From: Escherichia coli
Lineage (GTDB): Bacteria; Pseudomonadota; Gammaproteobacteria; Enterobacterales; Enterobacteriaceae
NCBI RefSeq assembly: GCF_003334765.1
Contig: NZ_QOWT01000010.1
Strand: one strand, 5' to 3'
Length of the DNA stretch: 64,000 nt
Below the pieces are notes generated by a model. That model saw only the letters and a program-made list of their open reading frames with translations. It had not been told where the DNA came from and did no database searches. Below, in pieces: positions 56,326-57,478 of this stretch (its first letter is position 1; each line of letters begins with the position of its first letter). The translations under genes and the position numbers were made by a program.

Positions 56326-56526
56326 ATGGCAATCCGAAAACGTTTTATTGCGGGCGCAAAATGCCCGGCCTGTCAGGCGCAGGATTCAATGGCGATGTGG
56401 CGCGAAAATAATATTGATATTGTTGAATGTGTTAAGTGCGGACATCAGATGCGAGAAGCAGACAAAGAAGCCCGCGATCACGTTCGCAAAGATGAGCAAG
56501 TGATCGGGATTTTTCATCCGGACTAG
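56326..56526 (+). CDS. yheV: Small zinc-ribbon protein
   Basis: 66 aa with two CxxC pairs (CPAC, CVKC). Confidence 0.8.
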   Translation: MAIRKRFIAGAKCPACQAQDSMAMWRENNIDIVECVKCGHQMREADKEARDHVRKDEQVIGIFHPD

Positions 56527-56620
56527 CGATATGCGCCGAGTTTTTTTAAGCTAGTGAGTACACGGCTGCAGAATTCCGCTACAATCTGCGCCACTATTCT
56601 TCCCATGCTCAGGAGATATC

Positions 56621-57211
56621 ATGAAAGTAGCAAAAGACCTGGTGGTCAGCCTGGCCTATCAGGTACGTACAGAAGACGGTGTGTTGGTTGATGAGTCTCC
56701 GGTGAGTGCGCCGCTGGACTACCTGCATGGTCACGGTTCCCTGATCTCTGGCCTGGAAACGGCGCTGGAAGGTCATGAAGTTGGCGACAAATTTGATGTC
56801 GCTGTTGGCGCGAACGACGCTTACGGTCAGTACGACGAAAACCTGGTGCAACGTGTTCCTAAAGACGTATTTATGGGCGTTGATGAACTGCAGGTAGGTA
56901 TGCGTTTCCTGGCTGAAACCGACCAGGGTCCGGTACCGGTTGAAATCACTGCGGTTGAAGACGATCACGTCGTGGTTGATGGTAACCACATGCTGGCCGG
57001 TCAGAACCTGAAATTCAACGTTGAAGTTGTGGCGATTCGCGAAGCGACTGAAGAAGAACTGGCTCATGGTCACGTTCACGGCGCGCACGATCACCACCAC
57101 GATCACGACCACGACGGTTGCTGCGGCGGTCATGGCCACGATCACGGTCATGAACACGGTGGCGAAGGCTGCTGTGGCGGTAAAGGCAACGGCGGTTGCG
57201 GTTGCCACTAA
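56621..57211 (+). CDS. slyD: FKBP-type peptidyl-prolyl isomerase/metallochaperone SlyD
   Basis: 196 aa; FKBP domain plus a His/Cys/Gly-rich C-terminal metal-binding tail. Confidence 0.95.
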   Translation: MKVAKDLVVSLAYQVRTEDGVLVDESPVSAPLDYLHGHGSLISGLETALEGHEVGDKFDVAVGANDAYGQYDENLVQRVPKDVFMGVDELQVGMRFLAETDQGPVPVEITAVEDDHVVVDGNHMLAGQNLKFNVEVVAIREATEEELAHGHVHGAHDHHHDHDHDGCCGGHGHDHGHEHGGEGCCGGKGNGGCGCH

Positions 57212-57225
57212 TACCGAAAAAGTGA

Positions 57226-57254
57226 CAAAAAAGCGGGGAATCCCCGCTTTTTTT
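57226..57254. terminator. Bidirectional intrinsic terminator between convergent slyD and slyX
   Basis: aaaaagcggggaatccccgcttttttt: GC hairpin flanked by an A-run and a T-run. Confidence 0.75.
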
Positions 57255-57259
57255 ACGCC

Positions 57260-57478
57260 TCAATAATGTGGCGGTGGCGTTTCTTCAGCCTGCGACGCGA
57301 TGTTCGACGGCTGGCTGGCTTTTAACTTCTCGGTCAGCAGACGCAGATGATCGCGCAGTTTCGCCATCTCCATTTCATGAGCGGTCACCGTGACGTTCAG
57401 TTCTTCAATGGTGATTTCCTGAAAAGCCAGTCGGCTCTCCAGCTCTGCCAGGCGTGCTTCCAATGATAAATCCTGCAT
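57260..57478 (-). CDS. slyX: Protein SlyX
   Basis: 72 aa, coiled-coil-like; convergent with slyD. Confidence 0.88.

Follow-up and report, generated by a model that had tools for sequence, protein, structure and literature searches.

The tail of SlyD is encoded by low-complexity DNA at the 3' end of slyD in the stretch of Escherichia coli DNA analysed here (64,000 nucleotides, hereafter the window). This raises the question of whether tail length varies between strains, how length variants arise, and what they would mean for a peptide known to chelate nickel. We hold with high confidence that this region is the nickel-chelating tail of SlyD, whose short repeats would yield occasional in-frame insertions and deletions, with one length kept by selection. 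The tail is textbook nickel-trafficking material, and knowledge of the protein is unchanged by our results; what we add, small and unsurprising as it is, is a catalogue of naturally occurring length alleles, rare and all of them repeat-bounded.

The slyD gene and its C-terminal tail

The slyD coding sequence lies at positions 56621–57211 of the plus strand and, according to the list of open reading frames, comprises 196 codons followed by TAA (stop codon at 57209–57211). By sequence comparison, its 196-aa product, with the C-terminus ...LAHGHVHGAHDHHHDHDHDGCCGGHGHDHGHEHGGEGCCGGKGNGGCGCH, is SlyD, as the initial annotation had proposed. It scored 426.8 bits against NF008008, the NCBIfam SlyD equivalog (cut-off 174), with residues 1–196 aligned to positions 1–196 of the 196-position profile. 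It was identical to full-length E. coli SlyD (PDB 2KFW_A) at 196/196 residues, tail included, and slyD was annotated, in one copy each, in 5426/5426 complete E. coli genomes. One of these copies was on a record labelled as a plasmid instead of a chromosome, which is probably mislabelled or an unusual replicon. The window has the gene order kefB-yheV-slyD-slyX-fkpA, with the same neighbours in other E. coli records. Its tail DNA matched that of K-12 substr. RV308 at 100% in BLAST, and the BLAST values of MG1655 equalled those of fully identical records.

The folded part of the protein (residues 1–148; 56621–57064, plus strand), delimited from Pfam matches and PDB coverage, consists of an FKBP prolyl-isomerase domain and an inserted IF (insert-in-flap) chaperone domain, an architecture described previously (PMC7055735, PMC11198818). 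The Pfam family PF00254 (FKBP_C) gave a partial match at residues 4–78 (E = 3.2e-8), which is what a domain interrupted by the IF insertion would give. The IF domain was recognized via 100% identity to the solved structures 2KFW, 2K8I and 8G01, which contain it, the last two being E. coli SlyD structures of tail-less constructs (residues 1–165 and 1–154, respectively). Over the tail, the Pfam search of SlyD found no domain.

The metal-binding tail itself comprises the last 48 codons before TAA (residues 149–196, HGHVHGAHDHHHDHDHDGCCGGHGHDHGHEHGGEGCCGGKGNGGCGCH; 57065–57208, plus strand). The peptide was exactly as quoted in the initial annotation, but the start given there (57060) was 5 nt early and out of frame, a trivial discrepancy. 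Translation and composition likewise bore out its description as a His/Cys/Gly-rich tail with HD/HG dipeptides and CC pairs: we counted 15 His, 16 Gly, 6 Cys, 5 Asp, 2 Glu and one each of Val, Ala, Lys and Asn, arranged with five HD and five HG dipeptides, two CC pairs and a GCGC end. All six cysteines of SlyD are located within the tail. Given the composition of 37 long open reading frames of the window, the probability of at least 15 His in 48 residues was 1.6e-13, with corresponding values of 2e-5 for Cys and 2e-7 for Gly. The tail starts with the conserved HGHVHGAH (57065–57088, plus strand), which includes His149/151/153. In a comparison of 183 protein sequences, the motif HGH[VI]HG was found in 177, at residue 149 in 166 of the 183. 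Two GCCGG motifs follow on the plus strand, the first at 57116–57130 (GGT TGC TGC GGC GGT) and the second at 57167–57181 (GGC TGC TGT GGC GGT). This motif was found in most enterobacterial tails compared, and GCGCH was the terminus of 122/166 tails.

Several features surround or overlap the gene. The product of yheV (56326–56526, plus strand), the gene directly upstream, has 66 aa and two CxxC pairs and carries the annotation of a putative zinc ribbon of the YheV family (Pfam DUF2387), so that a small putative metal-binding protein adjoins the metallochaperone gene. A 66-aa YheV protein (P0170) was also included in the 90%-identity cluster of Klebsiella SlyD, which is an oddity of database clustering, not biology. 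Between the convergent slyD (plus strand) and slyX (minus strand), an inverted repeat at 57227–57253, with an A-run on one side and a T-run on the other, forms a hairpin whose arms are 13 nt long. Its plus-strand RNA fold had −19.7 kcal/mol (z = −4.67), a terminator scan matched it on the minus strand, and it is probably a bidirectional intrinsic terminator between the two genes. An Rfam scan of the whole window returned no RNA family at gathering threshold. The stop codon of slyD was TAG in place of TAA (window position 57210) in haplotype L010 from strain RM9131. We rejected two overlapping open reading frames as genes: one on the minus strand that shadows slyD exactly (56609–57208, 199 aa), likely a by-product of sense-strand codon composition, and one in the +1 frame (57021–57266, 81 aa), also a by-product of codon composition, whose frame is entered by frameshifted alleles. 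Neither showed any sign of being a gene.

Repeats and length alleles in the tail

The tail DNA contains short, imperfect, codon-periodic repeats because the peptide is made of few residue types. TRF reported a sole array in the tail, at 57086–57114 (29 nt), with either 2.4 copies of period 12 at 94% or 5 copies of period 6 at 79%. The imperfect tandem array, at 57086–57115 of the plus strand (CAC GAT CAC CAC CAC GAT CAC GAC CAC GAC, encoding HDHHHDHDHD), was by indel mapping the hot spot of the −6, −12, +6, +12 and +15 alleles. The longest exact direct repeat of the tail, detected by exact repeat search, is the 11-nt CCACGATCACG, with its left copy at 57097–57107 and its right copy, 39 nt away, at 57136–57146 (both plus strand). 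The 39-nt deletion of L001 and L002 has these copies as its limits, and so does its reciprocal, the 39-nt tandem duplication of L021. Before the final His, a perfect tandem repeat of two GGTTGC units (57194–57205, plus strand) encodes GCGC, and its unit number varies among public alleles, with one unit in P0127 (194 aa) and three in P0183 (198 aa).

By 8-mer repetitiveness, the tail ranked first among 144-nt stretches of the 64-kb window, with 1/887 such stretches reaching its value. However, among 2000 random synonymous recodings of the tail peptide, repetitiveness was like that observed (a fraction of 0.32–0.52 of the simulations was equal or higher). Synonymous codons thus show no signal of having been selected to favour or to avoid DNA repeats; codon choice neither adds to nor reduces them, and the repeats follow from the peptide.

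We searched 5426 complete E. coli genomes (RefSeq) by BLAST with the whole gene, with a 211-nt tail segment, and then with variant alleles as queries. The whole-gene query spanned exactly 591 nt in 39 of 40 evenly spaced records, and the tail query aligned without an indel in 59 of 60; across all records, the tail query gave 33 at 90–95% identity and two at less than 80% coverage. As controls, two 211-nt segments of the slyD body yielded no record below 95% identity or 80% coverage and no sign of indels. Tail length alleles were present in at least 33 of the 5426 genomes (0.61%), a lower bound since small indels on SNP-rich backgrounds can escape in BLAST rankings, and they fell into seven classes at the DNA level. 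As an example of this background effect, delta-HD records of the E2348/69 type were missed by the query on a K-12 background and were found with another background; the variant queries were limited to alleles that were guessed or already known as proteins. Comparing tail length across E. coli genomes, the check suggested by the initial annotation, thus substantiated its claim of length variation between strains, with in-frame alleles present in complete genomes, and placed this variation as rare.

By size, 18 records had lost 6 nt, 11 had lost 12 nt and two had lost 39 nt, while one had gained 39 nt and one 15 nt. Most of the 6-nt deletions were delta-HD (194 aa; 17 records: PEC422, OY754443, RMDEC465, four of the E2348/69 type with serotype O127:H6, and ten of a divergent LR14 type), with a single delta-HH (194 aa; cM2a). 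The 12-nt deletions resulted in AHDHDHDG (192 aa; 10 records, among them H1827/12, FORC_082 and five from one isolate, EC0026B; three of the ten were verified by sequence and the other seven were assigned from identical BLAST statistics) or AHDHHHDG (192 aa; one record, NCTC9038). The 39-nt deletion (183 aa) was found in HCP4S3_I4 and VREC0864, its reciprocal insertion (209 aa) in ERP001, and the 15-nt insertion (201 aa) in MB10. All mapped indel events of complete genomes fell inside 57086–57146. BLAST with the +HD (198 aa) and delta-GC (194 aa) alleles as queries detected neither of them in the 5426 RefSeq complete genomes.

The LR14-type lineage (L024, NZ_CM188746.1, isolate LR14 and nine other complete genomes), labelled E. 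coli, combined about 27 slyD SNPs and the substitutions A155E, G63S, N65D and D66N with the 6-nt delta-HD tail. It accounted for all 10 records at 90–95% whole-gene identity. We considered larger unknown indels in these 10 records and rejected them in favour of SNPs plus the −6 allele.

In the wider public protein collection, thirteen in-frame length alleles from E. coli or Shigella were present as exact sequences, each on 1 to 693 contigs. The wild-type protein is on at least 1000 contigs there, and contig counts give no allele frequencies. Shortened forms were the 12-nt deletions, with AHDHDHDG on 693 contigs and AHDHHHDG on 454, delta-HD (330), −13 aa (174), delta-GC (194 aa; 34), −17 aa (179 aa, P0182; 33), which lacks 17 residues between the two GCCGG motifs, and delta-H and delta-HG (one contig each). 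Lengthened forms were +HD (198 aa; 375), +5 aa (103), +HDHH (17), +GC (8) and +13 aa (3). When we looked up predicted slippage products by exact sequence, 9 of 10 guesses were present in this collection; the +H allele (HHHH, 197 aa) was absent by the same look-up. Altogether, natural alleles span 179 to 209 aa, with 10–19 His and 4–8 Cys in the tail.

Beyond E. coli, in the sample of related proteins, SlyD forms with an intact tail had lengths of 173 to 217 aa, and in the full-length sequences that we read, length differences were confined to the tail. Across species, the HGHVHG[A/E] start and the GCGCH end were kept and GCCGG was usually kept, and the blocks of H with D, E or G between them expanded and contracted. 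Salmonella and Klebsiella had length alleles of their own (P0142, P0162, P0057). One of these, the Klebsiella protein P0057 (173 aa, 164 member sequences), lacks 24 tail residues and has the tail end ...HGHDGCCGCH. Its sequence suggests the same type of repeat-bounded deletion, at appreciable frequency in another genus.

Every deletion for which DNA sequence was at our disposal lay between direct repeats of 3, 6, 7, 9 or 11 nt, and every insertion was a perfect tandem copy, a pattern that fits slipped-strand mispairing or short-homology recombination. Short codon-periodic direct repeats would thus give rise to occasional in-frame deletions and tandem duplications, and the products would stay in frame because the repeat periods are multiples of three. 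The expectation that this DNA is repetitive and prone to slippage therefore held for the indels, all of them repeat-bounded or tandem, but the repeats are short, imperfect and only modest. Judging from the sequences, some length alleles originated independently more than once. The +HD allele derived from duplication of CACGAC (L013) or of CACGAT (L014–L016), on four SNP backgrounds, and the delta-HD protein WP_000861331.1, on at least three SNP backgrounds, had two junctions, CACGAT|CACGAC (PEC422, RMDEC465) and CACGAC|CACGAC (E2348/69). Likewise, the −12 AHDHDHDG allele was seen with and without a linked synonymous SNP, and the −39 allele was on two SNP backgrounds.

Low-complexity repeats are error-prone in some sequencing technologies, and the length variants could in principle be sequencing or assembly artefacts around an invariant true length. 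The frameshifted products P0012, P0046, P0072 and P0106, which include metagenome and read-archive assemblies, could well be such errors. The in-frame alleles speak against this explanation: they are exact repeat-bounded deletions or perfect duplications, they occur in complete genomes from unrelated laboratories, with the reference EPEC strain E2348/69 represented by two independent assemblies, they are on tens to hundreds of independent contigs, and they lie on distinct SNP backgrounds. We regard an artefactual origin as extremely improbable, and read the alleles as natural in-frame products of the tail repeats.

Frameshifted slyD products were observed in a 5-Mb E. coli contig (P0012) and in metagenome or read-archive assemblies (P0046, P0072, P0106, P0010, P0014). 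Their frameshifts lie within the tail and read into the 81-codon open reading frame at 57021–57266 in the +1 frame, with the loss of most or all tail cysteines; P0012, P0046, P0072 and P0106 end in ...FFTPQ, and P0010 and P0014 run further.

Conservation of one dominant length

Within E. coli, the amino-acid sequence of the tail is strongly conserved, consistent with purifying selection: six haplotypes of wild-type length, carrying as many as 9 SNPs across the gene and as many as 7 in the tail, all specify WP_000861334.1, the protein of the window. Among these six haplotypes, variable sites numbered 8 in the 48 codons of the tail versus 10 in the 148 codons of the body, all synonymous (Fisher p = 0.048). 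Identity bands agreed with this: at least 99% identity over the tail segment was reached in 1724 genomes, versus 4233 and 5412 for two body segments of equal length. Synonymous polymorphism is thus denser in the tail than in the folded part. We infer that, in over 99% of complete E. coli genomes, selection holds the tail at 48 residues, and that its length does drift from one lineage or species to another. That indel alleles are more numerous in the tail than in the body could be due in part to a disordered tail tolerating them, rather than to a higher mutation rate.

Simple-sequence contingency loci of bacterial pathogens undergo indels at short repeats within coding sequence, and the slyD tail resembles them in its repeat-based coding indels. 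The tail could then be a locus whose repeats are maintained and whose frequent length switching adaptively tunes nickel capacity between close relatives. The many length alleles, some of repeated origin, would be in line with this, as would whole lineages of non-standard length in our sample, namely the LR14 type (10/10 records) and the E2348/69-type O127:H6 genomes, and, by the names on proteins, Shigella dysenteriae and S. boydii. The slyD repeats differ, however, in being short, imperfect, codon-periodic and in frame: no long perfect array was present (2.4 copies of a 12-mer at 94% or 5 of a 6-mer at 79%, with a longest exact repeat of 11 nt), and repetitiveness was unchanged relative to random synonymous recoding. 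All sequenced indels were multiples of 3 nt and kept the C-terminal GCGCH, frameshifted forms were rare, and on/off switching of slyD is not to be expected because all repeat periods are multiples of 3. Moreover, the five derivatives of the parental isolate EC0026B all had the same allele, and one length prevailed in more than 99% of complete genomes, with at least 33/5426 non-standard. With no long array, no frame switching and one dominant length, the slyD tail is not a contingency locus, and we consider adaptive length switching very unlikely. The catalogue points to a disordered metal-binding tail that evolves by codon-periodic slippage, with a single length kept by selection.

A more speculative reading, which we hold to be rather unlikely, is that the natural length alleles form a functional series of differing nickel capacities, and that lineage-wide short tails, as in the LR14 type, EPEC E2348/69 and, by protein names, Shigella dysenteriae and S. 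boydii, result from a change in, or a relaxation of, selection on the supply of nickel to hydrogenase and not from neutral drift. Tail length would in that case be a genomic marker from which the nickel economy of a lineage could be read. In any case, these alleles provide a ready series for asking how many metal sites SlyD needs. In the literature that we searched, natural polymorphism of slyD tail length was the subject of no paper; one account of SlyD says merely that the tail varies among SlyDs (PMC7055735).

Nickel chelation and comparison with known systems

The function of the tail in nickel binding is well known, and the initial annotation was correct in calling it the nickel-binding tail of a metallochaperone (PMC7055735, PMC11198818). 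The SlyD sequence of the window is identical to the protein used in the nickel studies, and the nickel binding and hydrogenase role are taken here from the literature. In E. coli SlyD, the tail is an unstructured segment with many His, Cys, Asp and Glu residues, and binds up to 7 Ni(II) with Kd < 1.8 uM (PMC7055735). It has been described as a third, nickel-chelating domain, typical of gamma- and epsilon-proteobacteria (PMC11198818), and accounts for the notoriety of SlyD as a contaminant in Ni-affinity purification (PMC13397214). The tail is indispensable to the maturation of [NiFe]-hydrogenases and promotes Ni release from HypB, and a slyD mutation halves H2 production (PMC7055735). The truncation SlyD155 keeps one site (His149/151/153) and is without hydrogenase activation (PMC7055735, section 3.3). 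In the mechanism that we favour, the His/Cys/Asp/Gly-rich unstructured tail that follows the FKBP and IF domains would chelate several Ni(II) (up to 7 per protein) via imidazole and thiolate ligands, and would act as a nickel reservoir from which Ni passes into the large [NiFe]-hydrogenase subunit via HypB and HypA.

Judged by its composition, the His/Cys/Asp ligand set is not specific to nickel, and in vitro the tail takes up Zn, Cu, Co and further metals too, so that nickel specificity in vivo is a matter of degree. Furthermore, Ni(II) binding reversibly inhibits the PPIase activity of SlyD (PMC7055735), and SlyD has been tied to the assembly of iron-sulfur clusters, to Fur regulation and to copper resistance (PMC7055735, PMC11198818, PMC10653786). 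The main role of the tail could then be to buffer divalent metals in general (Zn/Cu/Co/Ni), or to act as a switch that regulates the isomerase, and not to serve as a dedicated nickel donor. This is an unlikely primary role, though of all the alternatives the one to which we would give most room, in the face of the hydrogenase phenotypes of SlyD155 and of the slyD mutation and the promotion of HypB nickel release (PMC7055735); moreover, it complements the reading of the region as a nickel tail rather than excluding it.

Among known systems, E. coli K-12 SlyD (2KFW, 2K8I, NF008008) is the same protein as that of the window, with no difference. The SlyD of Helicobacter pylori is likewise an FKBP-IF chaperone whose disordered His/Cys tail binds both Ni and Zn, and it too interacts with HypB and serves in hydrogenase maturation (PMC7055735, PMC3292732). 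Its tail is shorter, however, and binds about 2.4 Ni(II) per protein, in contrast to up to 7 in E. coli (PMC7055735); the solved H. pylori construct 2KR7 aligned solely to residues 11–146 of the SlyD of the window. Thermus thermophilus SlyD (PDB 3CGM) shares the FKBP and IF fold and the conserved HGHxH metal site that ends the folded part, but has a single metal site and no extended His/Cys tail, comparable to E. coli SlyD155, which does not activate hydrogenase (PMC7055735). Finally, the C-terminal tail of Klebsiella aerogenes UreE, the His stretch of Rhizobium HypB and H. pylori Hpn resemble the SlyD tail as low-complexity His-rich sequences that bind several Ni(II) and are thought to be nickel stores (PMC7055735). 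These proteins are unrelated to SlyD, whose tail also has paired cysteines, and whereas urease can mature without the UreE tail, hydrogenase maturation requires that of SlyD (PMC7055735).
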